From Acidimicrobiales bacterium (GTDB lineage Bacteria > Actinomycetota > Acidimicrobiia > Acidimicrobiales > RAAP-2), in assembly GCA_025362585.1 (NCBI GenBank), contig JANYFR010000045.1, positions 2,110 to 66,109 of the forward strand: DNA of 64,000 bases. Direction: 5' to 3'. Below are positions 8,356-44,130 of the stretch, piece after piece. The notes under the pieces are model-generated. The model made no database searches. It was not told the DNA's origin and was given only the letters and a program-made list of their open reading frames with translations. Numbering within the stretch: the stretch's first letter is position 1; the number at the start of each line of letters is the position of its first letter. The translations under genes and the position numbers were made by a program.

Positions 8356-8612
8356 ATTCACTCCGTACTGTCCTTGGTGCACTTGGCTTTGAGTCGTTAT
8401 CTATTTCTGATGTCGAGAAATTCAATCCAACTGAAACCGAATCTCACATACATTCAGGATAACTACGTTGACACTTTTAATCGCGGAATTGTCGTTTCTT
8501 TCAGAGAATTGATTAACGAGGTGCAAGAACAAAGAACCCTCAACACATCGCATGAGGTGCAGCACGCATTCCGCGAAGATCAAAATGATGTCGAGTCATC
8601 GCCTCAGATGAC

Positions 8613-8719: not shown

Positions 8720-9205
8720 CGCAAAGTTGGTGATCGCCTGTTGGTGTGGCAACGCCTCTCGGATGTCCGGAGCGCACCGTTGTGAATGAAGTTAATGGGT
8801 TTAGATGCGCAAGTAAAGGTGTAGCAATTGACATCGAAGGTAGTGAAGACTGACGCATACTGTCGAGTCGTTCCGATGGCGACGATGGAAACCGGCCTGA
8901 TTTCGGCATGACTGAGCCACACAACTCGGTGTTTACCAAATATTCCCTAATTCTTCGGAGCATGGTGGATGGCTCAAATGACTCAGCGTGGAGAACATCT
9001 CCTCATTGCATGTTGCGATTGTCCAGATCGAGAAGAACCCAGAAGTTTGGTCAAGGCAATTTTGTGGCAAAATCACCGCTTGCCATTGAGTGGGACTGTC
9101 CCGAATCTCCGTGACCAGTGAATTTGAGCGGCATTCAGCCAAAAGAACCGCGCCGAGGGACCAAGGATTGGGTATCGTGCGAGCAGAATGGTTGGAGGCG
9201 AGCAA

Positions 9206-10528
9206 ATGAATATTGCCACGTTCGTTTCGTTGGTGTTCAAGAACGAACTCCCATTCCGCATCGAGGCCTACGACGGCAGCAGCGCCGGACCGATGGTTGC
9301 ATCGCCAGCGAGCGAGATCACCGTGCGAATCCTGCGCCGAGAAGCACTGACGCGAATCTTCACACATCCTGGCGAACTAGGCGTCGCGCGGGCCTACGTC
9401 GCGGGCGACATCGACGTCGACGGTGACCTTGACGCCCTGTTCGATCTCGTGGCGCCCGGGGCAGCCCAACTGCTGCGAATCGAGAATCTTCGATCTCTGC
9501 TATCGGTCGTCGGCGTCGCGGGGCTAAGACCAATCGCCCCTCCGAGCATCGAGGCCCGGCAACGCGGCGTGCTGCACAGCCGTTCGCGAGACCGTCAAGC
9601 GATCTCGCACCACTACGACGTCTCCAATCGCTTCTACGAATTGGTTCTCGGACCGTCGATGACGTACTCGTGCGCCGTCTTTCGCTCGCCCGAGGACCCC
9701 CTCGAGGAGGCGCAACGTCGCAAGGTCGATTTGGTGGCGAAGAAGTTGGATCTGGCGCCGAGCAGGCGGCTACTCGACGTGGGGTGTGGTTGGGGCACAA
9801 TGGCCATCCACGCCGCGCGCACTTACGGCGCGAATGTGGTGGGCATTACGCTCTCCGAGCCTCAGCGGCGTTTCGCCATTGAGCAGGCGCGGTTGGCGGG
9901 CGTCGAGAACCTCGTCGAGTTTCGCATTCAGGACTACCGCGACGTCAATGACGGCCCGTATGACGCGATCAGCTCGATCGGCATGTCCGAGCACGTGGGA
10001 CGTAAATCCCTGGCGCCATACTCCCAAGGGCTCTTTGACCTCCTGCGCCCGGGTGGACGATTCCTCAATCACGCCATTGGACGACCGACCTCCTTCGAGG
10101 CCGACCCCGACCCGTCCAGGCGCTCCGAGGCGACCCACCAGTTACAGATTGCCCTCGGGATGCGGGGTCCGTCGAGGATCGGGAGCCCCTTCATCGAGCG
10201 CTACGTTTTTCCTGACGGCGAACTCCACGAGGTGGGCACGCTGGTCTCGACCTTCCAAGCCCATGGTTTTGAGGTCCGTCATCTCGAAAGTCTGCGCGAA
10301 CACTACGCCTTGACGCTTCGTCAGTGGGTGACTAATCTCACCAAACGATTCGACGAGGCAGTCGAAGAGGTTGGCGAGCAGCGGGCCCGGGCCTGGCATC
10401 TCTATATGGCGGTCTCGGCCGTGGGCTTTGCGCGCGGCCACCTGGAGATCCACCAGATTCTCAGTGTCCGCCCCGAAAAGGGACAGAGCGTGATGCCACT
10501 TCGACTTAACTTTGAACCTGGGTTCTAG
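9206..10528 (+). CDS. cfa: Cyclopropane-fatty-acyl-phospholipid synthase family SAM methyltransferase
   Basis: HYDVSNRFY, MTYSCA, LLDVGCGWG, YVFPDG and HYALTL motifs; GGAGG SD before ATG 9206. Confidence 0.9.
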   Translation: MNIATFVSLVFKNELPFRIEAYDGSSAGPMVASPASEITVRILRREALTRIFTHPGELGVARAYVAGDIDVDGDLDALFDLVAPGAAQLLRIENLRSLLSVVGVAGLRPIAPPSIEARQRGVLHSRSRDRQAISHHYDVSNRFYELVLGPSMTYSCAVFRSPEDPLEEAQRRKVDLVAKKLDLAPSRRLLDVGCGWGTMAIHAARTYGANVVGITLSEPQRRFAIEQARLAGVENLVEFRIQDYRDVNDGPYDAISSIGMSEHVGRKSLAPYSQGLFDLLRPGGRFLNHAIGRPTSFEADPDPSRRSEATHQLQIALGMRGPSRIGSPFIERYVFPDGELHEVGTLVSTFQAHGFEVRHLESLREHYALTLRQWVTNLTKRFDEAVEEVGEQRARAWHLYMAVSAVGFARGHLEIHQILSVRPEKGQSVMPLRLNFEPGF

Positions 10529-10598: not shown

Positions 10599-11576
10599 TC
10601 AGGTGTTCATGGACTTGGTGACCGTGCTCACAATCCGCTCCACCGACGGAATCGCCAGGTCTTCGAGGGCGTCGGCCGCCGGCAAGGGGATGTGGGGCGT
10701 CGTGATACGCACGATTGCACCGTCGAGGTCGTAGAAGGCCTCCTCGCTAACGATCGACGACAACTCCGCGCCCCAGCCGCAGAGCCGGGGGTTCTCTTCC
10801 ACGGTGAACATCCGTCCAGTGGCGATCACCTCGCGAAGAACCGTCGCGGTGTCGAGGGGCACGAGCGATCGAACGTCGATGACGGTGCAGTCAATTCCGG
10901 CGTCGCCGAGATTTTTCGCCGCGACGAGTGCCTTTGGGACCATGTTCCCGAGGGCGATCAGGGTCGCGTCGCCGCCACGTCGCAGTACCTTCGCGAGGCC
11001 CAACTCGTCGACAATCTCGCCGTCGGGGACTTCCATCTTGGAGGAGTAGAGCGCCTTCTCCTCGAGGAAGATGACCGGATCGTCGTCGCGGATCGATGCC
11101 GCCATCAGTCCAATGACGTCGAGGGCGTTCGACGGCACGACGACCTTCAGACCGGGGACCATCATCGCCCAGTTCTCCACGCTCTGCGAATGCTGGGCTC
11201 CGAAGCGCAGTCCGCCACCGTTGCCCGAGCGGATCACCAGCGGAAAGGTCAACTGTCCGTTGGTCATGTACCGACTCTTGGCGATCTCGTTGACGACAAT
11301 GTCCCAACAGACCGCGAAGAAGTCGGCGAACATGATTTCGGCGATCGGGCGAAGCCCGGTCATGGCGGCGCCCATGGCCGCGCCGAGGATGGCCTGCTCG
11401 CTAATCGGCGTGTCGCGTACGCGCACGCCGCCGAACTCCTCCAAGAGTCCAACGGTCCCCTTGAACACACCACCGGCGGCGCCGACGTCCTCGCCGAGCA
11501 AGACCACGGACTCGTCGCGACGCATCTCTTGGGCGATGCCCCGCGCGATCGCCTCTCGAAAGGTCAGTTGCGCCAC
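10599..11576 (-). CDS. TPP-dependent 2-oxoacid/acetoin dehydrogenase E1 beta subunit
   Basis: LLGEDVG, RVRDTPISEQ and HSQSVE motifs. GTG start with GGAGG SD, overlapping the E1 alpha stop. Confidence 0.9.
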   Translation of the reverse strand: MAQLTFREAIARGIAQEMRRDESVVLLGEDVGAAGGVFKGTVGLLEEFGGVRVRDTPISEQAILGAAMGAAMTGLRPIAEIMFADFFAVCWDIVVNEIAKSRYMTNGQLTFPLVIRSGNGGGLRFGAQHSQSVENWAMMVPGLKVVVPSNALDVIGLMAASIRDDDPVIFLEEKALYSSKMEVPDGEIVDELGLAKVLRRGGDATLIALGNMVPKALVAAKNLGDAGIDCTVIDVRSLVPLDTATVLREVIATGRMFTVEENPRLCGWGAELSSIVSEEAFYDLDGAIVRITTPHIPLPAADALEDLAIPSVERIVSTVTKSMNT

Positions 11577-12568
11577 GACGAACCTCCGTCCGCCCAGACG
11601 TCCTTCATCAACAGCTCCTCGCCTGGAATCGGCCCGCTCTTGGCCTCCTCGGTCGCGAGTTCGACCTGAGCCGCGACGGAAAGTTCGATCTCGGTCAGCT
11701 GGGCCTCGGAGGCACCCTCGGCCAGTAGCCGCGCGTGGTAGCGAGGGATCGGGTCCTTGGCCATCCATTCGGCGACCTCGTCGTCGGGGCGGTACTTACC
11801 CGGATCGGCTCTCGAGTGGCCGCCGTGGCGGTACGTCAAGGCTTCGATCATGCTCGGCCCCTCGCCCGCGCGAGCGCGAGCGATTGCCGTGGACGCCACT
11901 TCGTAGACTGCGTCGGCGTCATTGCCGTCGACGATGATCGCTTCGAGTCCGTAGGCCGCCGCCCGATCGGCCGCGGGGTTGGCCACCGCGGTCACTTCGG
12001 AGGTACGCGTGTACTCCATCCAGAGGTTGTTCTCACAGACGAAGACGACCGGGAGCTTCCAGATCGCGGCGAAGTTGAGGGCCTCGTGGAAGGCGCCGAT
12101 GTTCACCGAGCCGTCGCCGAAGAAACAGACGGCGACCTGCTCGGTGCCCCGGTACTGCGCACTCCACGCCGCGCCGCAGGCGATTGGCAGGTGCGCGCCG
12201 ATGATCGCGTAGCTGCCCATGACTCCGTGCTCGACCGAGGTGAGATGCATCGAGCCACCCTTACCGGCCATGAGGCCGTTGGCGCGACCCATCAGCTCGG
12301 CAAAGACCGGCGTCATTGGTACGCCGCGCGCCAGGGTGTGCGCGTGACCGCGATAGGTCGCGAAGGTCCAGTCGGTCGGGCGCATGGCGGCGGCGAAGCC
12401 GGCGGCAATTGCCTCTTGGCCAATGGACAGGTGACTCGTCCCCTTCACGTAGTTCTCGAGGAACAGGTCGTAGGCCCGCGTCTCGAACTGGCGCAACGCC
12501 ACTTGGCACCGATAGAGCGCAAGCTTCTCCGTGAGGTCCATGACGGACGTGGCGATGGTGCTACTCAT
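11564..12568 (-). CDS. TPP-dependent 2-oxoacid/acetoin dehydrogenase E1 alpha subunit
   Basis: TPP motif GDGS...ENN, HLSIGQEA, TYRGH and YRHGGHSRAD. Confidence 0.92.
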   Translation of the reverse strand: MSSTIATSVMDLTEKLALYRCQVALRQFETRAYDLFLENYVKGTSHLSIGQEAIAAGFAAAMRPTDWTFATYRGHAHTLARGVPMTPVFAELMGRANGLMAGKGGSMHLTSVEHGVMGSYAIIGAHLPIACGAAWSAQYRGTEQVAVCFFGDGSVNIGAFHEALNFAAIWKLPVVFVCENNLWMEYTRTSEVTAVANPAADRAAAYGLEAIIVDGNDADAVYEVASTAIARARAGEGPSMIEALTYRHGGHSRADPGKYRPDDEVAEWMAKDPIPRYHARLLAEGASEAQLTEIELSVAAQVELATEEAKSGPIPGEELLMKDVWADGGSSWRN

Positions 12569-12576
12569 GAATGCTC

Positions 12577-13827
12577 CTAGTACTTGTTGGCGACCATCAG
12601 CTCTTGCGCGGGAAACCGCGTAAGGATCGCTGGGCCGTTCTCGGTCACGACAATCTCTTCTTCGATACGGGCAGCCGACACGCCGTCGGTGCCGGGACAG
12701 TAGGTCTCGAGTGCGAAGACCATGCCCGCCTTCAGTTCAATGGGGTCGCTCAGACTGTTCAGTCGACTAATCACCGGGCGCTCGTGTAGTCCGAGGCCCA
12801 GGCCGTGACCGAACTGCAGCCCGAATGCCGCCATCTCGTTCGCGAACCCGAACTCGGTCGCCGCGGGCCACGCCCGCGCGATCTCGTCGGTCCCGACCCC
12901 CGGACGTACGAGGGCGATCGCCGTGTCCATCCACTCGCGCGCTTGGGTGTAGGCGTCACGCTGGACCGCTGTCGAACTACCCACCGACATTGTGCGGTAG
13001 TAGCAGGTGCGGTACCCATTGAACGAGTGAATAATGTCGAAGAAGGCCTGTTCGCCGGGACGGATGATCCGGTCGGTGAAATTGTGGGGGTGCGGATTGC
13101 AGCGTTCACCCGAGACGGCGTTGATTGCTTCAACCTGATCAGAACCCATTTCGTAGAGTCGCTTGTTCGCGAGCGCCACGATCTCGTTCTCACGTACGCC
13201 GGGCTTCAGGGCCTCGAAGATGTCCTGGTAGACACCGTCGACCATCGCGGCCGCCTGCGAGAGGAGCATCAACTCGTCGGGGGACTTGATCTGGCGCGCG
13301 TCGAGCATGAGCTGTTGGGCATCGTGAATCTCCACGCCGGCCTTTTGCATCTCGAAGAGGAAGGGCAGTTCGATGATGTCGATGCCGATCGGTTGACCGG
13401 TGAGGCCCTGATCCGCCAGGATGCCGACGATCTCCTTGACGGCCGACTCGAAGAGGCCGGCGCGCGGTGCAATGGCGCCGCGCAGTCCCAGCATGCCCGC
13501 GCGACAGTTGTCCGGTTCGAGCCACGGCGCGAACAGCTTGTGGTGACGCGCGGCCGAACCGAAGTCCCACACGATCGGCTCGCCGGTGCGCGTGAGCAGG
13601 CAGTAGCGCGTCATCTTGTCCCCGAGAGCTCCGCCCACCCACGTGCCCGACACGTAACGAATGTTGTAGAAGTCAAAGAGCAGGACCGCCGCGAGATCGG
13701 TCGCGTGCAGCGCCTCGCGCGCCCGAGCGAGCCGGTAGCTGCGCAGCCGGTCGAAGTCGACCCTCATCTCAAAGTCGACGCCCGTGTGGCCCGGGGTGTT
13801 GATCGTGGGACCGAAATCGAATTCCAT
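12577..13827 (-). CDS. M24 (Xaa-Pro peptidase/creatinase fold) hydrolase with a non-canonical metal site
   Basis: FFDII...GYRTCYYRT, GHGLGLGLHE, FALET and RIEE. The second metal-ligand Asp is replaced by Cys. Confidence 0.85.
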   Translation of the reverse strand: MEFDFGPTINTPGHTGVDFEMRVDFDRLRSYRLARAREALHATDLAAVLLFDFYNIRYVSGTWVGGALGDKMTRYCLLTRTGEPIVWDFGSAARHHKLFAPWLEPDNCRAGMLGLRGAIAPRAGLFESAVKEIVGILADQGLTGQPIGIDIIELPFLFEMQKAGVEIHDAQQLMLDARQIKSPDELMLLSQAAAMVDGVYQDIFEALKPGVRENEIVALANKRLYEMGSDQVEAINAVSGERCNPHPHNFTDRIIRPGEQAFFDIIHSFNGYRTCYYRTMSVGSSTAVQRDAYTQAREWMDTAIALVRPGVGTDEIARAWPAATEFGFANEMAAFGLQFGHGLGLGLHERPVISRLNSLSDPIELKAGMVFALETYCPGTDGVSAARIEEEIVVTENGPAILTRFPAQELMVANKY

Positions 13828-14762
13828 CAGCGCACCGCCAATCCGTCGTCGACCGCGACGTTCTCGGCGACCAAGGTGAGACCGGCCCCGCGAGCCGCCT
13901 CGAGGAGGAGCACGGCGAAGTCGTCGTCCACGTAGCCCGCCCCTATCGCGCTCTTGACAATCTCGGTGCAGAGCGCCGAGACGGGCATCGGCACGTCGAG
14001 TTCGTAGGCGGCGTGCATCCCGAGGTCGAAGTCTTTGCGCAACAGCGTGGGAGTGAAGGTCGGTGTGAAGTCGAGGTTCACGAACGCGGGTGACTTGTAG
14101 CGGGTGAACATCGAACCCATCACCGAGTTGTTAAGGAACTCGAGCCACGCGCTGCGCTGGACGCCGCCGCGCTCGGCGAGGACCGTGATTTCCGCCATCG
14201 CCTGGGCGACGATTCCGAGCATCATGTTGTGACAGATTTTGACGAGGCGCGCGACCTCGTCGTCGCCGACGTAGGTGACGCCGTTTCCAAGTTGGTCGAA
14301 ATACGGTCGCACGTCGTCGAACGCCTCACGAGTACCCGACACGGCCAGGGTCAGCTTTCCGGCCGCGACCACCTTCGGGTTACCACTCACTGGGGCGGCG
14401 AGGAAGGCCGCGCCCCGGGCGCTACAGGCAGCGCGCACCGCCGAAGAGGTCTCCGTCGACACCGTCGAGCAGTCGACCACGATTCGTGGAGCGTTGCTCG
14501 GATTGGTGAGCAGTCCCTGCTCGCCCGAGGTCACGTCCACCAGATCGGCGTTCGCCGAGACCATGATGAACACGATGTCACAGTGGGCGAGTTCCCTCGG
14601 CGTGTCGACGACGGTCGCCCCGAGTGCGCCGAGGACATCGGCCTTCGCGCGGGTACGATTCGTCACCGTGACTTCGTGGCCCGCGGCGACGAGCCGTCGA
14701 GCCATCGCGGTGCCCATTCGTCCGGCGCCAATCCAGCCAATACGCACTGGGCTCACACTCAT
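13827..14762 (-). CDS. NAD(P)-dependent beta-hydroxyacid dehydrogenase (3-hydroxyisobutyrate/6PGD family)
   Basis: GWIGAGRMG Rossmann motif, APVSG and catalytic Lys in VKICHN. Start ATG 14762 with GGAGG SD. Confidence 0.88.
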   Translation of the reverse strand: MSVSPVRIGWIGAGRMGTAMARRLVAAGHEVTVTNRTRAKADVLGALGATVVDTPRELAHCDIVFIMVSANADLVDVTSGEQGLLTNPSNAPRIVVDCSTVSTETSSAVRAACSARGAAFLAAPVSGNPKVVAAGKLTLAVSGTREAFDDVRPYFDQLGNGVTYVGDDEVARLVKICHNMMLGIVAQAMAEITVLAERGGVQRSAWLEFLNNSVMGSMFTRYKSPAFVNLDFTPTFTPTLLRKDFDLGMHAAYELDVPMPVSALCTEIVKSAIGAGYVDDDFAVLLLEAARGAGLTLVAENVAVDDGLAVR

Positions 14763-14787
14763 TCCGTCCTCCCGATCTCTACTGGTT

Positions 14788-15537
14788 TCAACTGGCGTGC
14801 TTGGTCTCTTCGATCGAACCGCCCAAGTAGAGTGCGCCAATTTCGGGGTTGTTGAGGACGTCAATCCCCGATCCCGACAACCGGACCCTGCCATTCTCGA
14901 GCACGATACCGGTGTGACTCAGCTTCAGCGCCTGACGGGCGTTCTGTTCGACCAACAACACGGTGCGACCCATGCTGTTCATCATCTTGATCGTGGCGAA
15001 CATGGAGCGAAGTGTCTTGGGGTCGAGTCCCATTGAGGGCTCGTCAAGCACCACGAGGTCCGGTTCAAGCATGAGGCACCGGGCGAACTCGACCAGCCGC
15101 TGCTGACCACCCGACAGGCTGCCGGCCTTGTCGCTCGCCCGTTCGGCCACGATTGGGAACATCTCACGTATCGCCGCCATCCGTTCGGCGATGACCTTGC
15201 GGTCCTTCACGAGAAAAGCCCCGAGTTCGACGTTCTCGTCGACCGTCATTTCACGAAAGAGGCTGTGGTGTTGAGGTACCTGGACGACGCCGAGGCGCAG
15301 GATCTGCCTGGGGGTCTGGCCGACCAGGTTCTCCCCCTTGAACCAGATCTCGCCCAATCGCGGCTTGACGAGCCCGCTCACGGTCTTGAGCAGCGTGGAC
15401 TTGCCCGACCCGTTGGGTCCCACGATGCAGGTGACCCCACCCTGTGGTACATCGAACTGAACACCCTTCAGCACGTCGCCCCCACCGTAGCCCGCGACAA
15501 CATTGGTGAAGCGAAGGAACGGGGCGGTCTCAGCCAT
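14788..15537 (-). CDS. LIV-type ABC transporter ATP-binding subunit (LivF-like)
   Basis: GPNGSGKST, LSGGQQ and LDEPSMGL motifs; start at ATG 15537. Confidence 0.9.
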   Translation of the reverse strand: MAETAPFLRFTNVVAGYGGGDVLKGVQFDVPQGGVTCIVGPNGSGKSTLLKTVSGLVKPRLGEIWFKGENLVGQTPRQILRLGVVQVPQHHSLFREMTVDENVELGAFLVKDRKVIAERMAAIREMFPIVAERASDKAGSLSGGQQRLVEFARCLMLEPDLVVLDEPSMGLDPKTLRSMFATIKMMNSMGRTVLLVEQNARQALKLSHTGIVLENGRVRLSGSGIDVLNNPEIGALYLGGSIEETKHAS

Positions 15538-16306
15538 TGACGGCCTCCACGACCTCGTCGTCGTCGCCGCCGCCCAGGTAGGCATCGAGGACGAGTGGAT
15601 TTGACCTCACGGCCGCGGGCTCACCCGACACCAGATTCGTGCCCTGGTGCATCACGCTCACCCAAGTGCAGAGGTTCATCACGAACTCCATGTTGTGCTC
15701 GACGATTAAGAACGTCTTGCCGGACTTATTGAGTGTGCGGATTTTCTCCGCGACCTGATTGATCAGCGTGAGATTGACCCCACCAGCCGGTTCGTCGAGC
15801 AAGATCACGTCGGGGTCGGCGACGAGCACATAGGCGAGCTCGAGGAGCTTGCGCTGGCCGTACGAGAGGGCGCCGGCCTCGAGGTCGGCCAGTCGAGCGA
15901 TGCCCACGAAGTCGAGCCACTCCATTGCCGAGGCGACTTCGGCCTTGGAGGACTTCGAACGCGTCAGGCCGCGCAGCCAGCTCTCGTCGCGCTGGGTCGC
16001 CACCAGCATGTTCTCGAGCACGCTGATGCGACCAAAGATCCGCGTCAACTGGAAGGTCCGCCCGATACCTCGCTCAAACACCACGTTCGGACGCGCGTTG
16101 GTGATGTCGTTGCCTTCGAACGTGACGGTGCCGGCGTCGGGTTTCACGTAGCCAGTGATGACGTTAAAGAGTGTTGTCTTGCCCGAACCGTTTGGCCCGA
16201 TGAGCCCGGTGATGCTCCCCTGCTCGACGTCGAGCGAGCAGTCGACGAGGGCCTTGACGCCCCCGAACGACTTCGACACGTTCTGGGCACTTAGCAGCGT
16301 CGTCAC
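15530..16306 (-). CDS. LIV-type ABC transporter ATP-binding subunit (LivG-like)
   Basis: GPNGSGKTT, LSYGQRK, LLDEPAGG and LDAYLG motifs. Confidence 0.9.
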   Translation of the reverse strand: MTTLLSAQNVSKSFGGVKALVDCSLDVEQGSITGLIGPNGSGKTTLFNVITGYVKPDAGTVTFEGNDITNARPNVVFERGIGRTFQLTRIFGRISVLENMLVATQRDESWLRGLTRSKSSKAEVASAMEWLDFVGIARLADLEAGALSYGQRKLLELAYVLVADPDVILLDEPAGGVNLTLINQVAEKIRTLNKSGKTFLIVEHNMEFVMNLCTWVSVMHQGTNLVSGEPAAVRSNPLVLDAYLGGGDDDEVVEAVNG

Positions 16307-17301
16307 GAGGCCACCCCAGCGACCGCGGCCTCATTGGAGGCGACGGCCGCCTTCTCCCGTTCGGCCTTCTTCGTGACGCGGTCACGCAGGAAGACGACGA
16401 CGCCCTGGGGCATGAACATGATGACGATGAGAAAGAGGGCGCCGTAGAGGAAGAGGTACAGGTACGGGTACGACACGGTGAAGTACTGCTGGCTTGCCTC
16501 GAGGATCAGCGCGCCGAGGAGCGGGCCGGTAAGTGTGCCGAGTCCGCCGAGGAACGCCATCAGCGCGATGCTGATGTCGAAGAAAGGATCAAACGCGAAC
16601 TGGGGGTAGATCTGGCCGAGGAACATTGCGTAGACGGCACCGGCCATGCCAATCGTGAAGGCCGACATGGTGAAGCCGGCGCGCTTCACGGCAGCGACCT
16701 TGACGCCGAGTCCGAGGGCCCGGTCCTCGTCGTCGCGAATCGCCAATAACTGCAAGCCGAACCTCGAGCGGCGTACGACCGCCGACACGACAGTGATGAA
16801 AATGAGAATGCCGAGGGCCACGTAGTAGAAGGGGACGTTGTAGTAGCTCGCGTTCCACTGGATGAAGGGCAGCGCAATGCCCGCCGACCCTCCGGTGAAT
16901 GAGAAGTTGAATGCCGCATTCTGAAAGATGAATAGCGTCGCGATCGTGATGACGACGAACGTGTGGCGCCGCACCCGCAGCGCCGCCCAGCCGATCGGCA
17001 GGGCGACCGCGGAGGCGGCGAGTCCGCCGAGGGGGACGAGCCAGAACATGCCGGCCCCCGGCGCCATGTGCCAATGCGTCGAGGCGAGCGCCATCGTGTA
17101 AGCCCCGACCCCGTAGAAGACGCCTGATCCCAGGGCGACGTAGCCCGAGTAGCCCGAAAACATATTCCACGACGTCGCGCAGGCCATGTACAGCAAGGTG
17201 AGGACGGCGATCGCCATGTAGCTCGGATTAGACACCCACATGGGAAAGAACCCGAACAGGGCGATGGCCGGCAACCACCACAGGTTCTTCTTTTGACGCA
17301 T
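16303..17301 (-). CDS. LIV-type ABC transporter permease (LivM-like)
   Basis: Multi-TM protein with SRFGLQLLAIRDDE and LGGLGTLTGP. Confidence 0.88.
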   Translation of the reverse strand: MRQKKNLWWLPAIALFGFFPMWVSNPSYMAIAVLTLLYMACATSWNMFSGYSGYVALGSGVFYGVGAYTMALASTHWHMAPGAGMFWLVPLGGLAASAVALPIGWAALRVRRHTFVVITIATLFIFQNAAFNFSFTGGSAGIALPFIQWNASYYNVPFYYVALGILIFITVVSAVVRRSRFGLQLLAIRDDEDRALGLGVKVAAVKRAGFTMSAFTIGMAGAVYAMFLGQIYPQFAFDPFFDISIALMAFLGGLGTLTGPLLGALILEASQQYFTVSYPYLYLFLYGALFLIVIMFMPQGVVVFLRDRVTKKAEREKAAVASNEAAVAGVAS

Positions 17302-18185
17302 TACGCCACTCTCGCGGACTGCTTACCGAAGAGTCCCTGGGGACGCACGAGGAGGACCACGACGAGGACGACAAAGTACGACATCGTCGACCAGACCGGG
17401 GACCACACGGTGCCGACCACGTCGCCAATGAACACCATCGACACACCGGCGAGCATGGCGCCGCCAAGACTGCCCATTCCTCCGAGCACGATGATGGTCA
17501 ACAGTCGAGATATCAAGTCGTAGCTGGTACTCGCGTTAAATGCGTTGGTGGAGCCGTAGATCATCCCGCCGGCCGCGGTCACGGCGACGCCGATGCCGAA
17601 GCAGATCGTCGACACGCGACGCACGTCGATACCGACTAGCGCCGCGGACGTCTGGTCGGCGAGGGACGCGCGCACGCTCACCCCAAAGCGAGTGCGGTAC
17701 AACATGAAGTACAGGGCGCTCAGGAGGACGGCCGCCATGACGAAGCCGGCCACGTAGATGAATCCGAAGTGCACTCCACCAATGCTGAAGGATCGAGTCA
17801 CGTACGACGCCTGCAGTTGGACGACGTTGACCGAGAAGACCGTGTTCAAGGTCCCCTCAATCAGCAGCGAGACAGCGTACGTGACCAAGATCGACATGGC
17901 AGTCTTCTCGGGGCCCTTCAATCGAGCCATGAAGACCCGCTCAATCACGACCCCCACGACGAACAGCGTGGGGATCGTGATCAAGAGGCCGACGAAGAGG
18001 TCGATGCCCAGGTGGACCGACAAGGCGTAACTCAAGTAAGCGCCGAGAATCACGAGGATCCCCTGAGCCACGTTGATGATGTCCATGACCCCAAAGATCA
18101 GGGTCAGTCCGGTGGCCATCAGGGCGTAGACCGAACCGGTCAGGATCCCGTCCTTGGCTGCATTGAGGAGTGCAATTGCGTTCAA
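17301..18185 (-). CDS. LIV-type ABC transporter permease (LivH-like)
   Basis: YALMATGLTLIFGVMDIINVAQG and LGGMGSL motifs; TTG start. Confidence 0.88.
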   Translation of the reverse strand: MNAIALLNAAKDGILTGSVYALMATGLTLIFGVMDIINVAQGILVILGAYLSYALSVHLGIDLFVGLLITIPTLFVVGVVIERVFMARLKGPEKTAMSILVTYAVSLLIEGTLNTVFSVNVVQLQASYVTRSFSIGGVHFGFIYVAGFVMAAVLLSALYFMLYRTRFGVSVRASLADQTSAALVGIDVRRVSTICFGIGVAVTAAGGMIYGSTNAFNASTSYDLISRLLTIIVLGGMGSLGGAMLAGVSMVFIGDVVGTVWSPVWSTMSYFVVLVVVLLVRPQGLFGKQSARVA

Positions 18186-18188
18186 GGG

Positions 18189-19445
18189 TTATTTGCCCCA
18201 GGCCGGCTTCGGGTAGACAGGCTTCGCCGACTTGGGGTCAGACGTCGGATTGATCTGGACGAACTTCGTCCCCGACGTACCCTGCCACTGGAAGGTGTAG
18301 GTCAGCGACTGGAAGTTCTGGCCCGCGTTATTGAACTTGACGTTGCCCTCGACGCTCTTCATCAGGACACCCGAGTGGAGGTACTTGATGATCTTCGCGT
18401 TGTCCACACCACCCGTAGCGACGATCGCCTGCGCGGCGACCTGGCCCACGGAGTAGGCCTCGGCGATGTCGGCGTTGACGCCTGCGGCGTTGCCCCCGTA
18501 CTGCTTGATGTATTCGGCCACCATCTTCCGCGAGGCCGGCAGCGCTGAGCCGCCATACCAGGAGTTCGGCACCATAATGCCGTCCGCGTTTGCCTTGCCC
18601 ACGGCCTTTAGAAACGCTGCGCCCTGGTCGGGTCCGGCGGTAGCGATCATGGCCTTGGGATTGAAGCCCGACTGCTCAAAGGCCTGCATGAACGACGACA
18701 CCGTCGGAACGTCGACCGAACCGAGGAGGACCACCTGGGGCTTCGCCGCCGCGACCGCGTCAGCGATGGGCGTGAAGTCGGTCACTTCGGAGGGGAAGAC
18801 CTTGTTGTAGACGGTCTTGATGCCGGCCTTCTCCATGATCTTCTGGGCGACGGGCAGCTGGGGCTGGGTGAAGGGGTCATTGGACGTCACGTACGCCGCG
18901 GTCGTCGGTCGCTGGCTCTTGGGCAGCGACGAAATCCAGGTCGCGAAGGGCACCAGGGCGTTCGCGATGGGCAGCGTCACGTCAAAGACGTTGTGCAGTC
19001 CGGCACTAAAGACCGACGGTGCGCCACCGGCGCCCTCAATCATGGAGTAGCCGAATCGTGAGGCGGCCTTGGCCGCCGGGATCGTCAACAGGGACGAGAA
19101 CGGCCCGAAGACCAGGTTGACGTGCTTCACCGCTATCAGATTCTGGATGTTGGTCTGCACCTGGTCCGCCTTAGAGGCGTCTGACACAAAGGTCAGCACG
19201 ACCTTGTGTCCGAGGAGGCCGCCGGCCCGGTTGACGTCAGCCGCCCAAAGCCGGTACCCCTGCTGGAAGGCAATGCCGTCGGCCGAAAAGTCGCCGCTCA
19301 GTGAGAGCGAGATGCCGATGTTAATGGGCGCGCCTTTGGCGAGTCCGCTCGAGCTGGCGCCACTCGTGGTCGCCATCGTGACTGCTGATGAGACTGCGAG
19401 CGAGCTCACAGCAAGCGTGCGAAAAAGTTTCCCTTTTCTGTTCAT
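18189..19445 (-). CDS. LIV-type (periplasmic binding protein type 1) ABC substrate-binding protein
   Basis: Signal peptide, then INIGISLSLSG, ADVNRAGGLLGHKV and GPFSS. Confidence 0.88.
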   Translation of the reverse strand: MNRKGKLFRTLAVSSLAVSSAVTMATTSGASSSGLAKGAPINIGISLSLSGDFSADGIAFQQGYRLWAADVNRAGGLLGHKVVLTFVSDASKADQVQTNIQNLIAVKHVNLVFGPFSSLLTIPAAKAASRFGYSMIEGAGGAPSVFSAGLHNVFDVTLPIANALVPFATWISSLPKSQRPTTAAYVTSNDPFTQPQLPVAQKIMEKAGIKTVYNKVFPSEVTDFTPIADAVAAAKPQVVLLGSVDVPTVSSFMQAFEQSGFNPKAMIATAGPDQGAAFLKAVGKANADGIMVPNSWYGGSALPASRKMVAEYIKQYGGNAAGVNADIAEAYSVGQVAAQAIVATGGVDNAKIIKYLHSGVLMKSVEGNVKFNNAGQNFQSLTYTFQWQGTSGTKFVQINPTSDPKSAKPVYPKPAWGK

Positions 19446-19695
19446 GTTTTCCCCCTGCGGTTGTTGAACCCTGAAAGACCCCCAAATACCTGCGACTCCA
19501 AGGTGATCACTCGGTGAGCGATTTCGTAACCATAACGACAGGGCCGTTCAAAGTAAAGCGCAGAACTGTCCAAAACGGCCCATTTTGCATGAAAAGAGTT
19601 CAGTCTGTCCTTTAAACGTTTTCAGGCAATTGCCCTATCGGCGACGAGTCTTCGTCCGTTACCATCGCCATCACGACCGTTGTCCTAGGAGGACC

Positions 19696-20766
19696 ATGAC
19701 TGACGTCTTGCTCGAAGCGGCAATCGCCAACTGGGAGCCCCGATTCACGGTCAACGGGGTCGACGCGAACGACTACGCACGCATCACGCGCAATCTCCAG
19801 CGATGGGACGAGTGGTGCGCGGCGTGGTGCGCCGGAGCCGAAGAGCACGTCACCCTTGGCGCCGAGGCACTTCGCGACGGCCGACACTTCAGTGCCGGCG
19901 AGGCCTTCGCTCGCGCGGCGACCTACTTCCACTTCGGCAAATTTCTCTTCGTTCACGACCATGATCAGGCGAGGGCGGCGCACGGGCGCGCCGTGGAATC
20001 ATTGAATCGAGCGACGCCGCTCTTTCGCCCCGGTGGCCAGCGCGTGGAGATCGCCTTCGACGGTTCGACAATCGTGGGGCTCTTTCGCCCCCCACACGCC
20101 AACGGTCCCCACCCGACGGTGCTCTTGATCCCCGGCCTCGACTCAACCAAGGACGAGTTCCGCGAGATCGAGCGATCCTTCCTCGAACGAGGCATGGCCA
20201 CGTTCGCCCTCGACGGCCCGGGCCAGGGCGAAGCTGAATGGACGTTGCCAATTCGACCGGACTGGGAGGTGGTCGGCGAAGCGGTCCTCGCCCGACTCGC
20301 CCAGATGCCCGAGGTCGACGCGACGCGCGTCGGCGTCTGGGGAGTCAGTCTCGGTGGCTACTACGCCGCGCGTCTCGCCAGCTCCAACCTGCCGATACGG
20401 GCCACCATCGCCCTCGCCGGGCCCTACGACCTCGGCGCGTCGTGGTCTAATCTCAACCCCCTCACCCGGCGCGCCTTCGAAGTGCGATCATTCTCCTCGA
20501 CCCCTGAAGAGGCCGAACTGCGGGCTCGAGATATGACGCTCGACGGCCTCGCCTCCAAGATCGCGATGCCGTTGCTCGTCATCATGGGGAAGAAGGACCG
20601 CCTCTTCCCGTGGCAGGACGGGGTGCGTCTGGCCGACGAGGCGCGCGGCGAATCGTCGGTCGTGCTGCTCGAGGACGGCAACCACGGCTGTGCCAATGTC
20701 GTTTATCGTCATCGTCCCCTCAGTGCGGACTGGATGGCCCAACGCCTCGAAATCGGGGCCCCCTAG
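19696..20766 (+). CDS. Alpha/beta hydrolase resembling 2,6-dihydroxypseudooxynicotine hydrolase
   Basis: Nucleophile elbow GVSLGG, PGLDSTK, DGPGQGE and C-terminal GNHG; helical N-terminal extension with WDEWCAAW. AGGAGG SD before ATG 19696. Confidence 0.8.
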   Translation: MTDVLLEAAIANWEPRFTVNGVDANDYARITRNLQRWDEWCAAWCAGAEEHVTLGAEALRDGRHFSAGEAFARAATYFHFGKFLFVHDHDQARAAHGRAVESLNRATPLFRPGGQRVEIAFDGSTIVGLFRPPHANGPHPTVLLIPGLDSTKDEFREIERSFLERGMATFALDGPGQGEAEWTLPIRPDWEVVGEAVLARLAQMPEVDATRVGVWGVSLGGYYAARLASSNLPIRATIALAGPYDLGASWSNLNPLTRRAFEVRSFSSTPEEAELRARDMTLDGLASKIAMPLLVIMGKKDRLFPWQDGVRLADEARGESSVVLLEDGNHGCANVVYRHRPLSADWMAQRLEIGAP

Positions 20767-20808
20767 TGTTTGGCCCGTCGTTTGCGGCAAATTTGGAGAG
20801 CCACTGCC

Positions 20809-22152
20809 ATGGCTGACGTCACGATGCCTCAGTTGGGCGAAACGGTCGCCGACGGCACGGTCACGAAATGGTTGAAGAGCGTGGGCGACGTGGTTACCCG
20901 GGGTGAGCCCCTCTTCGAGGTCTCGACCGACAAGGTCGACACCGAAATACCGGCACCCGCAGACGGCGTGCTCACCGCAATCCTCGTCAACGAGGGCGCC
21001 ACGGTCGACGTCGGGACGCGACTGGCCGTCATCGGTGCGCCGGGCGACATCGAACAGGTCGCACCCCCCGTCGTCGCCAGTGACCGCGCGCCGCTGTCCT
21101 CGACGAACAGACCGGAGTCGCGACGCGAACGCTCCAAGGGCGAGACACTCTCGCCCGTCGTGCGTCGCCTACTCGCCGAGCACGGCCTCGACGCCTCACA
21201 GGTAGTCGCCGCGGGGCCGGCGGGCCGACTCACTCGCGATGACGTCCTCGCCGCCGTCGCCTCGCGAACAGTGACGACCGGTGGCTCTGCGCTCTCGCCC
21301 GTCGTGCGACGACTGCTGGGTGATCAGGGTATTGATCCCTCCTCTTTGGTGGGGACGGGACCAGGAGGACGTCTCACGCGACGCGACGTGGAGGCGGCAA
21401 TTGCCGCGGGGACGACCGGGCGTGTTGTCACGTCAGCAACGGGTGACCAGGTCGTGCCCTTCACGAAGATTCGTCGGCTCACGGCCGAGCACATGGTCCG
21501 GTCTAAAGCCACCTCCGCCCACACCCTGATGGTGAAGGAGACGGACTACGAGCGCGTCGAATTGGTACGTCGGCGACTCGGACCGGCCTTCAAAGAAAGT
21601 GAGGGATTTTCTCTCACGTTTCTGCCCTTCAACGCCCTCGCCGCGCTCCAGGCACTGCGAGAGTTCCCACACCTCAACGCCTCGGTCGGTGACGACGAAC
21701 TAATCGTCCACCACGATCTCAACCTCGGTGTCGCCGTCGACCTCGACGGTGACGGACTGGTGGTGCCAGTCATCCGCCACGCCGCCGGCTACGACCTTCG
21801 CTCAATCGCGCGACGGATTCGCGAACTCGCGACGTCGGCGCGTGCGAAGCAGTTGACCGTGGACGATCTGGCGGGCGGCACGTTCACGATCACCAATCCC
21901 GGACCCTTCGGCACACTCCTGACGGGCGCGGTCATCAACCAGCCCCAGGTGGCGATCCTCTCCACCGACGGCGTCTCGCGCAAGCCGGTCGTGGCAGTAA
22001 CGCCCGATGGTGGCGAGTCCGTGACCATCCACTCGGTGGGCAATCTCGCACTCACCTTCGACCACCGGGCAATCGACGGGGCGTACGCCGCGCGCTACCT
22101 GAGCCGCGTGGCCGAGATCCTGCACACTCGCGACTGGGCCAGCGAACTCTAG
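20809..22152 (+). CDS. Dihydrolipoamide acyltransferase E2 (one lipoyl domain, two peripheral-subunit-binding domains)
   Basis: MPQLGETV...STDKVD lipoyl Lys, LSPVVRRLL twice, and catalytic DHRAIDG. Confidence 0.9.
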   Translation: MADVTMPQLGETVADGTVTKWLKSVGDVVTRGEPLFEVSTDKVDTEIPAPADGVLTAILVNEGATVDVGTRLAVIGAPGDIEQVAPPVVASDRAPLSSTNRPESRRERSKGETLSPVVRRLLAEHGLDASQVVAAGPAGRLTRDDVLAAVASRTVTTGGSALSPVVRRLLGDQGIDPSSLVGTGPGGRLTRRDVEAAIAAGTTGRVVTSATGDQVVPFTKIRRLTAEHMVRSKATSAHTLMVKETDYERVELVRRRLGPAFKESEGFSLTFLPFNALAALQALREFPHLNASVGDDELIVHHDLNLGVAVDLDGDGLVVPVIRHAAGYDLRSIARRIRELATSARAKQLTVDDLAGGTFTITNPGPFGTLLTGAVINQPQVAILSTDGVSRKPVVAVTPDGGESVTIHSVGNLALTFDHRAIDGAYAARYLSRVAEILHTRDWASEL

Positions 22153-22186
22153 AGTCTGAACGGCATCGCAGCAGTAGCCTTCGAAC

Positions 22187-22798
22187 ATGAAGACGCGGGA
22201 CCGTATTCTCGACGCCGCGGCGCTCGAGATTGAACGAAACGGAATGACGCAGTTCCGAGTGAAACGCGTCGCCTCCGAAGCTGACGTCTCGGTGGCGCTG
22301 CTCTACAGCTACTTCGATGACCGCGAAGACCTGATCGCCGCGACGATGGTACATCGCTATCGTCAGGTCCTCATCGGAACCGCCAAGATCTTCACCGAGC
22401 CCCTGAAGAACGTGGCGACGGGCGACGACCTACGCGCAGCCCTCCGCGTCATCATCGCCGACGCCCAGACTCCCGAACGAACCGAGGCGAGGAACCTGCG
22501 CATCGAGGGCATGTCCTTCGCTCAGCACAACCCCACCGCCCTCGCTGGCGTCGCTGACGCGAAGCGCGAGGCGAGCACCTTGATTATGAGCAGCGTCCAG
22601 CCCCTCGTCGACAAGGACCTCCTCGCCGACGGCATGAGCGGCGTCGCGTTCGCCAGAATCTGGTACGCATTGTTCTTTGGACAGATCGCTCTCGAGGGAG
22701 AGCACGCCCTCTCCATCGATGACGACGACTGGCTGCGGGCCCTGCAGGTGATCGCCGAATCGGCGATCCGCACGAACCGCAATATTCCAGTCCCCTAG
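22187..22798 (+). CDS. TetR/AcrR family transcriptional regulator
   Basis: N-terminal HTH TRDRILDAA...VASEADVSVALLYSYF. Confidence 0.85.
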   Translation: MKTRDRILDAAALEIERNGMTQFRVKRVASEADVSVALLYSYFDDREDLIAATMVHRYRQVLIGTAKIFTEPLKNVATGDDLRAALRVIIADAQTPERTEARNLRIEGMSFAQHNPTALAGVADAKREASTLIMSSVQPLVDKDLLADGMSGVAFARIWYALFFGQIALEGEHALSIDDDDWLRALQVIAESAIRTNRNIPVP

Positions 22799-22985
22799 CG
22801 TACTTGCGCCTCGCAATGCGAGGAGGGAGGTTCACTCGAATCAGCATCTTCCGACGGCCATTTCATCGAAGTGCTGATCGATGAACAGCGACGCGTGATG
22901 GTCGCCTTCCTCGAGGCGAGTCGATGCTCGTTTGACCCGTTAACGACCGTGGGTTCAACGGTGGTCGAGCGCTCGAGCGCCAATG

Positions 22986-23468
22986 TCAGCCCACGAATCG
23001 CGCCCGCGAGGCCTCGAGTTCCGCCAACGCCTCGTGGCGTCCGACGTAGTTCTCGACCTTTACCCACTTGCCTTCGTCGAGGTCCTTGTAGACCGTGAAG
23101 AAGTGGCTAATCCGGTCGAGGAGTTGTTGGGGCACGTCGGTGATGTCGGTCGCCGACTTCCACCGCGGGTCGTAGTTGGGAACGGTGATCAACTTGGCGT
23201 CCTCGCCCTTCTCGTCGGTCATCACGCACATCCCGAGGATCCGGGCCTCGATCAGGCACCCCGGAAATGTCGGGAACTCCGTGAGGACGAGGGCGTCGAG
23301 GGGGTCGCCATCGCCACCGAGGGTGTCGGGGATGAAACCGTACTCGGCGGGGTACCCCATCGCGACGATCAGGTGTCGGTCCAGCATGATCGTGTGCGAC
23401 TCGTGGTCGTACTCATACTTATTACGACTGTCGCGGGGTATCTCCACGACGACCTTTACCGTGTCCAT
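22986..23468 (-). CDS. ppa: Inorganic pyrophosphatase (family I)
   Basis: NKYEYD, YGFIPDT, DGDPLDALV and FFTVYKDL motifs. Confidence 0.95.
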   Translation of the reverse strand: MDTVKVVVEIPRDSRNKYEYDHESHTIMLDRHLIVAMGYPAEYGFIPDTLGGDGDPLDALVLTEFPTFPGCLIEARILGMCVMTDEKGEDAKLITVPNYDPRWKSATDITDVPQQLLDRISHFFTVYKDLDEGKWVKVENYVGRHEALAELEASRARFVG

Positions 23469-23657
23469 GAAATCGTCGGCTCCTCGATTGGTGTCGCCGC
23501 AACGACGACGCAGTTGTGGTCAATCGTAGCCATCCTCTCCACGCCTGCTTACCCGAGAATCGTCGCCCCAGACTCAGTTCACCGTTCGGGGACTGACGAA
23601 GGGGCGAGCGTAGACTTTGCCGTTGGGGTCGACGACTCGACGGAGATGGAGGTCTCG

Positions 23658-24512
23658 ATGGAGCGCATAGGTGTGGTGGGTTGTGGACTGATGGGATCGG
23701 GCATTGCCGAGATCGCGGCTCGAGCGGGCGCCGACGTCGTCGTCGTCGAGCGTGACGCCTCGGCGGTCGCACAGGGAGTGGCGCGAATCGAGCGCTCCCT
23801 CACCCGCGCCGTCGCCGCCGGCAAGATTCCCGACGATGAGGCCAACCGGACCCGAGGAAATCTGACCTTCGGCGAGGACTTCGCCATGCTCGCCGATCGC
23901 GAACTGGTCATCGAAGCCGTCGCCGAGGACGAAATCACCAAACTCGCGGTCTTTGAGAAACTCGACGACGTCGTCCTCGACCCCCGCGCCATCCTCGCCA
24001 CCAATACGTCGTCCATACCCATCATCAAACTGGCGATGGCGACCGACCGACCCGAGCAGGTCATCGGCATGCATTTCTTTAACCCGGTGCCGGTGTTGAA
24101 ACTCGTCGAGGTCATCTCGTCACTGCTCACCAGCGCGGAGACCACCGCGCGGGTCCACGCCTACGCCAGCGACGCGCTCGCGAAAAAGGTCATCTCCTCA
24201 AAAGACCGGGCCGGCTTCGTCGTGAACGCGCTCCTCATTCCCTATCTGCTCTCGGCGATCCGAATGCTCGAAACCGGCTTCGCCAGTGCCGAGGACATCG
24301 ACACCGGAATGGTCCTCGGCTGCGCCCATCCCCTTGGACCCCTGGCCCTGACTGACCTCATTGGACTCGACACCACACTCGCCGTGGCCGAGTCGCTCTA
24401 CGAGGAGTTCAAGGAGTCACACCTTGCTCCTCCGCCGCTGCTCTCTCGCATGACCCAGGCCGGACTCTTGGGCCGAAAGTCGGGTCAAGGTTTCTACTCA
24501 TACAAGGTTTGA
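23658..24512 (+). CDS. 3-hydroxybutyryl-CoA dehydrogenase
   Basis: GVVGCGLMGSG, IEAVAE, TNTSS, GMHFFNP and GFVVN motifs; GGAGG SD. Confidence 0.92.
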   Translation: MERIGVVGCGLMGSGIAEIAARAGADVVVVERDASAVAQGVARIERSLTRAVAAGKIPDDEANRTRGNLTFGEDFAMLADRELVIEAVAEDEITKLAVFEKLDDVVLDPRAILATNTSSIPIIKLAMATDRPEQVIGMHFFNPVPVLKLVEVISSLLTSAETTARVHAYASDALAKKVISSKDRAGFVVNALLIPYLLSAIRMLETGFASAEDIDTGMVLGCAHPLGPLALTDLIGLDTTLAVAESLYEEFKESHLAPPPLLSRMTQAGLLGRKSGQGFYSYKV

Positions 24513-24567
24513 GTCGTAACGACCTCACTCGCGTGACGACGTCGTCGCCGTGGACAACTCGCAGTAG

Positions 24568-44129: not shown

Positions 44130-44130
44130 G

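Follow-up and report, generated by a model that had tools for sequence, protein, structure and literature searches.

The question raised by a cluster of twelve genes in the DNA of an Acidimicrobiales bacterium (assembly GCA_025362585.1, contig JANYFR010000045.1) is which compound it serves to take up and degrade, and by which chemistry. The stretch analysed, hereafter the window, covers 64,000 nucleotides of this contig, and the cluster occupies positions 10599-22798 as two divergent operons, which encode a Liv-type ABC importer, a beta-hydroxyacid dehydrogenase (beta-HAD), a hydrolase or lyase of the M24 ('pita-bread') fold, the E1 and E2 subunits of a thiamine pyrophosphate (TPP)-dependent dehydrogenase, an alpha/beta hydrolase and a TetR-family regulator. 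Taken together, these genes suggest a catabolic cluster that is under repressor control and dedicated to one small polar compound, most likely a hydroxylated amide or amidine and possibly one derived from an N-heterocycle, a reading to which we give somewhat more than an even chance. We infer every reaction step of this route from the gene content, adjacency and residue conservation that were observed.

An earlier note had described a leftward operon (substrate-binding protein, livH, livM, livG, livF, beta-HAD, M24, E1alpha, E1beta) and a divergent operon (hydrolase, E2, TetR) sharing a promoter region of about 250 bp. All twelve genes proved to lie where it had placed them, each with a strong Pfam match (domain E-values from about 1e-10 to 1e-78), and the region between the operons, 19446-19695, measures 250 bp. 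The called frames showed a third-position GC of 0.77-0.87, and the minus-strand junctions consisted of overlaps of 1-13 nt or gaps of 3-25 nt, the beta-HAD stop and the M24 start sharing a single base. Start codons were refined to positions downstream of those of the longest open reading frames for E1beta (GTG 11576), beta-HAD (ATG 14762), livF (ATG 15537) and E2 (ATG 20809), with plausible ribosome-binding sites upstream, such as GGAGG before the E1beta start; the hydrolase ATG at 19696 is likewise preceded by aggagg. The named close homologues and the nearest loci came from metagenome-assembled genomes of Acidimicrobiales/Acidimicrobiaceae. A search of sequencing runs located the window sequence in sediment and rock metagenomes, and two soil runs labelled RNA-Seq returned scattered fragments of 95-99% identity across the whole region, which are uninformative on induction.

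The M24 protein (12577-13827, minus strand) shows the domain architecture of the M24B group, with both the pita-bread domain (Peptidase_M24, 1e-37) and the N-terminal creatinase/prolidase domain (Creatinase_N, 3e-6). When compared with the curated families of NCBIfam (June 2026), it reached no cut-off: the best match was DddP with 101 bits against a cut-off of 600, followed by PepQ (79/630), DoeA (76/613 and 58/575), an aminopeptidase family (65/393) and PRK10879 (31/465). The family profile retrieved DddP structures (4s00/4s01/4rzy, 4b28) as the best PDB match, at 2e-46 and over the full length, with prolidases close behind and with DoeA and creatinase structures at E-values of 1e-8 to 1e-11. 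The earlier designation of the protein as creatinase/ectoine-hydrolase-type is thus not the most fitting one, the nearest solved relative being DddP.

Inspection of 60 orthologues showed D264, H341, E374 and E389, as well as H246 and H248 of an NPHPH motif, to be invariant, and 122 of the 416 residues are invariant across two phyla. Four of the five metal ligands of M24B Xaa-Pro peptidases (Asp, Asp, His, Glu, Glu) are kept, while the second Asp is replaced by Cys275 (GYRTCYYRT), itself invariant in the 60 orthologues; this position was assigned from the motif, for which we take GY.sD.TRT to be the canonical form. Alignment of the profile with 4s00 left without counterpart the two residues that hold the Asp of the VDISRT segment, presumably the bridging metal ligand Asp307 of DddP. 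Because an invariant Cys stands at the second metal-Asp position, the M24 protein, judged from its residues, is not a canonical dinuclear-metal peptidase.

This replacement bears on an alternative that we regard as quite improbable, namely the scavenging of peptides and branched-chain amino acids, with the Liv system as importer, the M24 protein as prolidase, the alpha/beta hydrolase as serine peptidase, E1/E2 as branched-chain 2-oxoacid dehydrogenase (BCKDH) and beta-HAD as the 3-hydroxyisobutyrate dehydrogenase (HIBADH) of valine catabolism. The generic annotations are compatible with it (Liv-type ABC, Peptidase_M24, weak Peptidase_S9/S33 matches, E1/E2, HIBADH at 143 bits), and the M24 protein is automatically named 'Xaa-Pro peptidase' in the sources; however, it lacks the second metal Asp needed by prolidases and carries the invariant Cys in its stead.

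As part of a dedicated catabolic cluster, the M24 protein would cleave a C-N bond or, less likely, perform a DddP-like elimination. DddP, a dimethylsulfoniopropionate lyase, sets a precedent for non-peptidase chemistry on this fold and is both the best solved relative and the best NCBIfam match, with an alignment spanning both domains; it differs in the wide gap between score and cut-off, in the metal Asp that has no counterpart here and in gene context, which in this module consists of a dehydrogenase, E1/E2 and an aldehyde dehydrogenase (ALDH). DoeA and creatinase are also M24-fold enzymes, which open an amidine or a guanidine and not a peptide, and in the ectoine (Doe) route DoeA works with DoeC, an aldehyde dehydrogenase of the succinic-semialdehyde dehydrogenase (SSADH) family. 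However, the M24 protein falls far below the cut-offs of these enzymes and genes for the DoeB deacetylase and the DoeD transaminase are absent from the cluster.

The gene context was compared across genomes by means of an M24 profile built from a 6-sequence alignment, a 14-sequence alignment being too diverse for a genome scan. In species-representative genomes the profile had at least 596 matches, the best 80 of which, 70-93% identical, came from Acidimicrobiia and many Actinomycetes orders. Genes were called and clustered in the loci, and partners were counted in the 58 with full 10-kb flanks. A beta-HAD gene lay adjacent to M24 in 45 of them, and a TPP-dependent E1, either heterodimeric or fused, occurred in 42 (nine having the window type, at least 65% identical), for which chance placement of an E1alpha-E1beta pair within 10 kb would account in about 1-2% of cases by our own rough estimate. 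The other partners were an SSADH-like ALDH (40/58), a LacI regulator (35/58), a small VOC-fold protein (34/58), E2 (32/58), a GntR regulator (27/58), a Liv-type substrate-binding protein (27/58) and the alpha/beta hydrolase (22/58). The whole window layout was syntenic in seven other Acidimicrobiales genomes, and a one-direction operon in the order hydrolase-betaHAD-M24-VOC-E1-E2 was found in locus L015, with the same order plus one extra gene in L028 and L056. TgnAB-like flavin-dependent oxygenases were considered as a further part of the module and discarded, being neighbours in 3 of 80 loci only.

The earlier note had staked its proposal on co-conservation, and the genes do travel together across Actinomycetota and Alphaproteobacteria, within a clear hierarchy: beta-HAD (or a short-chain dehydrogenase, SDR) and M24 are the core, the TPP-dependent E1/E2 and the SSADH-like ALDH are frequent, and the hydrolase is accessory. 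Two other claims fared worse. The pathway had been called complete, and yet the ALDH that is regular in relatives is missing from the cluster, the nearest ALDH in the window lying at 42663-44168; in most relatives this enzyme would yield a dicarboxylate such as succinate. In addition, the nearby hbd gene, put forward as a partner processing the product, was kept in 1 of the 58 loci only.

The module extends beyond Actinomycetota, since M24 homologues of 60-62% identity were found on plasmids of Phaeobacter, Tritonibacter, Marinovum and Pacificitalea. The Roseobacter plasmid operon contains genes for an SDR, M24, E1alpha, E1beta, a double-lipoyl protein, an SSADH-like ALDH and an E2 catalytic subunit, followed by dihydrolipoamide dehydrogenase (Lpd, E3) in Phaeobacter, and it adjoins a sugar-type ABC importer and a beta-HAD gene. 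The E2 of these plasmids is split into a two-lipoyl protein with a degenerate C-terminus and a separate E3-binding/catalytic protein (L081:15280-16566 and 18023-18901), with the ALDH in between. The Salinarimonas locus is similar to that of Phaeobacter. In Roseibium the order is LacI, beta-HAD, Liv-type importer, glutathione S-transferase, YdcZ, M24, E1alpha, E1beta, lipoyl protein, ALDH, E2 and a two-subunit molybdenum hydroxylase, and a streamlined freshwater genome of Nanopelagicaceae retains only LacI, the Liv importer, beta-HAD and M24. The accessory hydrolase is absent from the three Roseobacter plasmid loci, from Roseibium and from Salinarimonas. LacI and ROK regulators, sugar-type ABC importers, SSADH-like ALDH and molybdenum hydroxylases in relatives would be unexpected for the use of branched-chain amino acids, which argues further against scavenging.

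Some additional features were recorded in these loci. A YdcZ-type drug/metabolite-transporter 'exporter' lies near M24 in two lineages that are far apart, Nanopelagicaceae (L045:1967-2941) and Roseibium (L086:9418-9864), and might carry a by-product of hydrolysis out of the cell. Small catabolic plasmids such as that of Paenarthrobacter ureafaciens (L082:12010-13431) harbour a paralogous M24 clade of 54% identity, which there adjoins genes for a flavin reductase, an amidase, a Liv-type importer, RidA and a cupin, and probably serves a different substrate. An orphan neighbour resembling substrate-binding proteins (f12) returned no Pfam or PDB relative.

The second core gene, beta-HAD (13827-14762, minus strand; NAD_binding_2 6e-39, NAD_binding_11), would generate an aldehyde or oxo group by oxidising a hydroxyl of either the substrate or its product. 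The protein remained below all equivalog cut-offs, with 143 bits against the 292 set for HIBADH, and its best solved relatives, Geobacter 3pef and 3pdu and then Arabidopsis 3doj, ranked above the entries deposited as 3-hydroxyisobutyrate dehydrogenase; both results disagree with a role in valine catabolism. The Geobacter entries were deposited as 6-phosphogluconate-dehydrogenase NAD-binding and 3-hydroxyisobutyrate-dehydrogenase-family proteins, and we take all three to be 4-hydroxybutyrate/succinic-semialdehyde or glyoxylate reductases. Such an identity would agree with the SSADH-like ALDH that accompanies the module in relatives.

The import system is a complete transporter of the HAAT (Liv-type) family in one operon, all on the minus strand: a substrate-binding protein (18189-19445; Peripla_BP_6, 7e-45), the permeases LivH (17301-18185; BPD_transp_2, 1e-24) and LivM (16303-17301; BPD_transp_2, 1e-33) and the ATPases LivG (15530-16306; ABC_tran, BCA_ABC_TP_C) and LivF (14788-15537; ABC_tran, 9e-33). 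This system would import the compound. The substrate-binding protein scored far below the cut-offs of UrtA (65/493) and LivJ (58/477), the latter result being a further point against amino-acid scavenging, and its solved relatives were distant (1e-13).

The TPP-dependent complex is represented by E1beta (10599-11576; Transket_pyr 2e-40, Transketolase_C 1e-33) and E1alpha (11564-12568; E1_dh 2e-78) on the minus strand and by E2 (20809-22152; Biotin_lipoyl, two E3_binding, 2-oxoacid_dh) on the plus strand. E1beta exceeded the cut-off of the pyruvate dehydrogenase (PDH) E1-beta subfamily NF006667 (339 bits versus 321) and was the only one of the diagnostic proteins to pass a curated cut-off, with M24, beta-HAD, the hydrolase, the substrate-binding protein, E1alpha and E2 all below. 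E1alpha carries an intact TPP motif (GDG..NN, residues 151-181) and fell short of the PDH equivalog cut-off (337 versus 394); among solved structures it was nearer to human PDH E1alpha (202 bits) and the Thermus 2-oxoacid dehydrogenase (183) than to BCKDH (132-146), again contrary to what scavenging would require. E2, below all equivalog cut-offs, possesses a lipoyl domain with the Lys in STDKV, two E3-binding stretches and the catalytic DHRAIDG (DHRxxDG) motif, so that the features of a complex of this type are present in all three subunits. No match to Lpd was obtained within the 64-kb window. By the chemistry of the family, this PDH/acetoin-type E1 and E2, with E3 encoded elsewhere, would convert a 2-oxo acid or an acyloin to acyl-CoA.

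These features also recall acetoin and 2,3-butanediol catabolism, in which a dehydrogenase would make an alpha-hydroxyketone, E1/E2 would split it to acyl-CoA and an aldehyde, and an ALDH would oxidise the latter, leaving the M24 protein with a side role or none. AcoABC, like PDH and BCKDH, combines a heterodimeric TPP-dependent E1 with a lipoyl E2, and in Cupriavidus the aldehyde dehydrogenase AcoD partners the Aco system, just as an ALDH accompanies the relatives of this cluster. E1 is of the heterodimeric PDH/Aco type and under the PDH cut-off; in Alphaproteobacteria the ALDH stands between two E2 genes with Lpd next to them, which follows the logic of a split into acyl-CoA and aldehyde; the neighbouring SDR is annotated as butanediol dehydrogenase in one source; and the hydrolase adjoins E2, recalling AcoC, in which a lipoyl domain is fused to an alpha/beta-hydrolase fold. 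However, the E2 described here has a canonical catalytic domain and not the AcoC hydrolase fold, and AcoR and AcoX are absent from the window, as is E3. Moreover, no gene of the module is better conserved (60-93% identity) or more constant than M24, which is thus no passenger; versions with M24 and beta-HAD and without E1/E2 exist; and acetoin diffuses freely, so that an ABC importer controlled by LacI or TetR would be unusual for it. An acyloin cluster is thus very improbable.

The alpha/beta hydrolase (19696-20766, plus strand) had been designated a 2,6-dihydroxy-pseudo-oxynicotine (DHPON) hydrolase-type enzyme. The fold family was confirmed, as the best PDB match was the DHPON hydrolase of Paenarthrobacter nicotinovorans (2jbw, 4e-42, residues 7-352), followed at about 1e-15 by the Ayg1-like and AntI enzymes, C-C hydrolases that shorten polyketides, which places the protein in the FrsA-like DHPON-hydrolase/Ayg1/AntI family. 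The triad Ser218-Asp301-His330, which is that of 2jbw, was also recovered, with GVSLG intact, Ser and Asp invariant and His present in 25 of 26 aligned sequences. Orthology is doubtful: identity to DHPON hydrolase was only 31-36%, which points to a separate clade. Best relatives that are C-C hydrolases also speak against the serine peptidase of the scavenging explanation. In the cluster the hydrolase would act as an accessory front-end enzyme, making a C-C cut in a 1,3-dicarbonyl tautomer or cleaving an ester or lactone. Its gene lies directly beside E2 in two arrangements, that of the window and the order E1-E2-hydrolase of three Micromonosporaceae loci (L011, L012, L017).

The relatedness to DHPON hydrolase raises the possibility, rather unlikely in our judgement, that the cluster is the lower pathway of a pyridine-type N-heterocycle, where the hydrolase would free a side chain of the ring or the M24 protein would remove an N-acyl group after ring opening, with subsequent oxidation of succinate semialdehyde or of a 2-oxo acid. 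Release of the side chain from a dihydroxylated ring is known in nicotine catabolism, and removal of an N-acyl group in the trigonelline and homarine routes. Beyond the family of the hydrolase and the regular SSADH-like partner, this idea draws on an IorAB-type molybdenum hydroxylase (2Fe-2S and molybdenum-cofactor subunits), found in 12 of the 58 loci: hydroxylase and hydrolase occurred together in 13 of 15 Actinomycetes loci, often with a CrtI-like flavoprotein, an arrangement that resembles the upper nicotine pathway (the hydroxylase loci are L012, L013, L015-L018, L022, L025, L028, L048, L056, L059, L066, L071 and L074). In Roseibium the corresponding Fer2 and molybdenum-cofactor genes follow E2 in the same operon (L086:16776-19381). 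The nicotine pathway, however, is without M24, beta-HAD and E1/E2 partners, and the window is without a hydroxylase; the low identity to DHPON hydrolase speaks in the same direction. Domain scans of the window, in which no Hom sequences were compared, detected no molybdenum hydroxylase, flavin monooxygenase, HomA/B-like or TgnA/B-like gene, and ring-attacking enzymes are also absent from the three Roseobacter plasmid, Salinarimonas and Nanopelagicaceae loci. An N-heterocyclic substrate, as entertained in the earlier note, is therefore favoured by the hydroxylase association and disfavoured by a window lacking any ring-attacking enzyme.

The homarine operon (homABCDER; PMC13236597) and the tgn operon of trigonelline catabolism are both conserved, each serves a small N-containing osmolyte by means of a hydrolase or 'peptidase' and an aldehyde or succinic-semialdehyde dehydrogenase, and both are common in Rhodobacterales. 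In the hom operon, described mainly in Proteobacteria, homA (FAD) and homB are adjacent with homC and homD nearby, and the 'peptidase' HomC is paired with the ALDH HomD after ring opening (PMC13236597), which would suit an N-heterocyclic origin; that work does not give the protein family of HomC, so the likeness is by description only. The present cluster differs in that no FAD-binding or two-component oxygenase domain occurs among its genes or the scanned neighbours, HomA, HomB and HomC having been compared by description only.

The regulatory part of the proposal was examined by aligning the 250-bp intergenic region with its counterpart from seven other Acidimicrobiales loci. Four motifs were kept in all 8 loci: a 17-bp palindrome, ATCACTCGGTGAGCGAT, at 19506-19522, and the elements TGAAAAGAGTTCA (19590-19602), GTAACCATAACGA (19526-19538) and TCCGTTACCAT (19655-19665). 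The arms of the palindrome covary between loci, a pattern expected of a protein-binding operator, and shared control of the two operons is plausible. The TetR-family protein (22187-22798, plus strand; TetR_N 6e-10), whose orthologue is confined to close Acidimicrobiales relatives (4/58 loci), would probably bind the conserved palindromes between the operons. A scan with the E. coli-type promoter returned no match in this region, the E. coli consensus being uninformative for this phylum.

Several observations weigh against a dedicated catabolic cluster for a hydroxylated amide or amidine. The nearest relative, L001 (CAWDPR010000006.1), whose M24 is 93% identical and whose flanks carry the same cyclopropane-fatty-acyl-phospholipid synthase (CMAS), hbd and kynureninase genes, has hydrolase-TetR and betaHAD-M24-E1a-E1b and is without the Liv importer and E2; both blocks were therefore gained or lost recently. 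Importers (Liv-type or sugar-type CUT2) and regulators (LacI, GntR, ROK, TetR) vary among relatives, and the chemical class of the substrate is thus not fixed. Among the E1 proteins linked to M24 there are three lineages, only 32-42% identical to each other, compared with 60-77% for M24, so that E1/E2 may have been recruited independently and may act, at the end of the route, on a common rather than a pathway-specific 2-oxo acid. The AlphaFold model of the M24 protein, obtained from a shallow alignment of sequences 58-95% identical to the query, reached a pLDDT of 61 and stayed below 50 over most of the catalytic domain between residues 209 and 353; it is too poor for inspection of the active site. 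Finally, the genes point to a class of compound and to no single substrate, and the M24 protein may act before or after beta-HAD.

The genes surrounding the cluster were also annotated. CMAS (9188-10528) is the next gene downstream of E1beta, on the opposite strand, and is kept only in L001. On the other side, in the region 22983-25797, the hbd reading frame of 509 residues carries the 3-hydroxybutyryl-CoA dehydrogenase domain from about residue 222, the preceding 220 or so residues having no Pfam match, and translation probably begins at ATG 23646; convergent with this frame is a gene for kynureninase (24568-25797), which exceeds the curated cut-off for that enzyme and was found in 1 of the 58 loci. 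The segment 26075-33406 encodes an ABC-F ATPase, an MFS transporter and a Bmp/PnrA-type ABC importer (substrate-binding protein, fused ATPase and permease), which look unrelated to the cluster. Within 4-8382 lie a type IV pilus/type II secretion ATPase (6499-8382) and a platform protein (5150-6820), adjoined by two large reading frames, 4-3723, truncated by the edge of the window, and 3720-5153, with weak adhesin or glycosidase-domain matches only.

As to novelty, no characterised orthologous pathway was found in the curated families, among solved structures or in a limited full-text search of the literature, and the same limited search returned nothing relevant on a published M24 + E1/E2 + SSADH cluster, on the Phaeobacter plasmid loci or on mycosporine catabolism. 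The description of the pathway as apparently undescribed thus stands within that search, no curated family or paper having been found that assigns it a function. What the cluster presents is a set of known folds assembled around an uncharacterised, atypical M24 subfamily. One known reaction in want of a gene is that of pantothenase, the protein of which was still unidentified in 2023 (PMC10393543). Speculatively, an M24 pantothenase followed by beta-HAD as pantoate 4-dehydrogenase, ALDH and then BCKDH would fit as enzyme types; against this idea, dimethylmalate dehydrogenase is absent, and the types of importer and regulator fit poorly. In more general terms, we suggest tentatively, and as less probable than not, that the Cys-for-Asp M24 subfamily catalyses a reaction assigned to no gene yet, such as the hydrolysis of a hydroxy acid derivative, either a tertiary amide or an amidine, and that with beta-HAD, the SSADH-like ALDH and the TPP complex it forms a route, widespread and so far undescribed, for some metabolite that is abundant in the environment.

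If peptide or branched-chain amino-acid scavenging were true, the finding would be ordinary. The strong conservation of M24 across two phyla suggests an ecologically common substrate, and if the novel route exists its carriers would include Actinomycetota of soil and sediment, Nanopelagicaceae of fresh water and, in the sea, Roseobacter and Stappiaceae. The carriers include genome-streamlined freshwater Actinobacteria as well as cultured, tractable Phaeobacter, Roseibium, Mycolicibacterium, Streptomyces and Nocardioides. Identification of the substrate would give a function to a family misnamed 'Xaa-Pro peptidase', would bring the non-peptidase chemistries of the M24 fold to three or four and would explain a recurring orphan TPP-dependent dehydrogenase complex.

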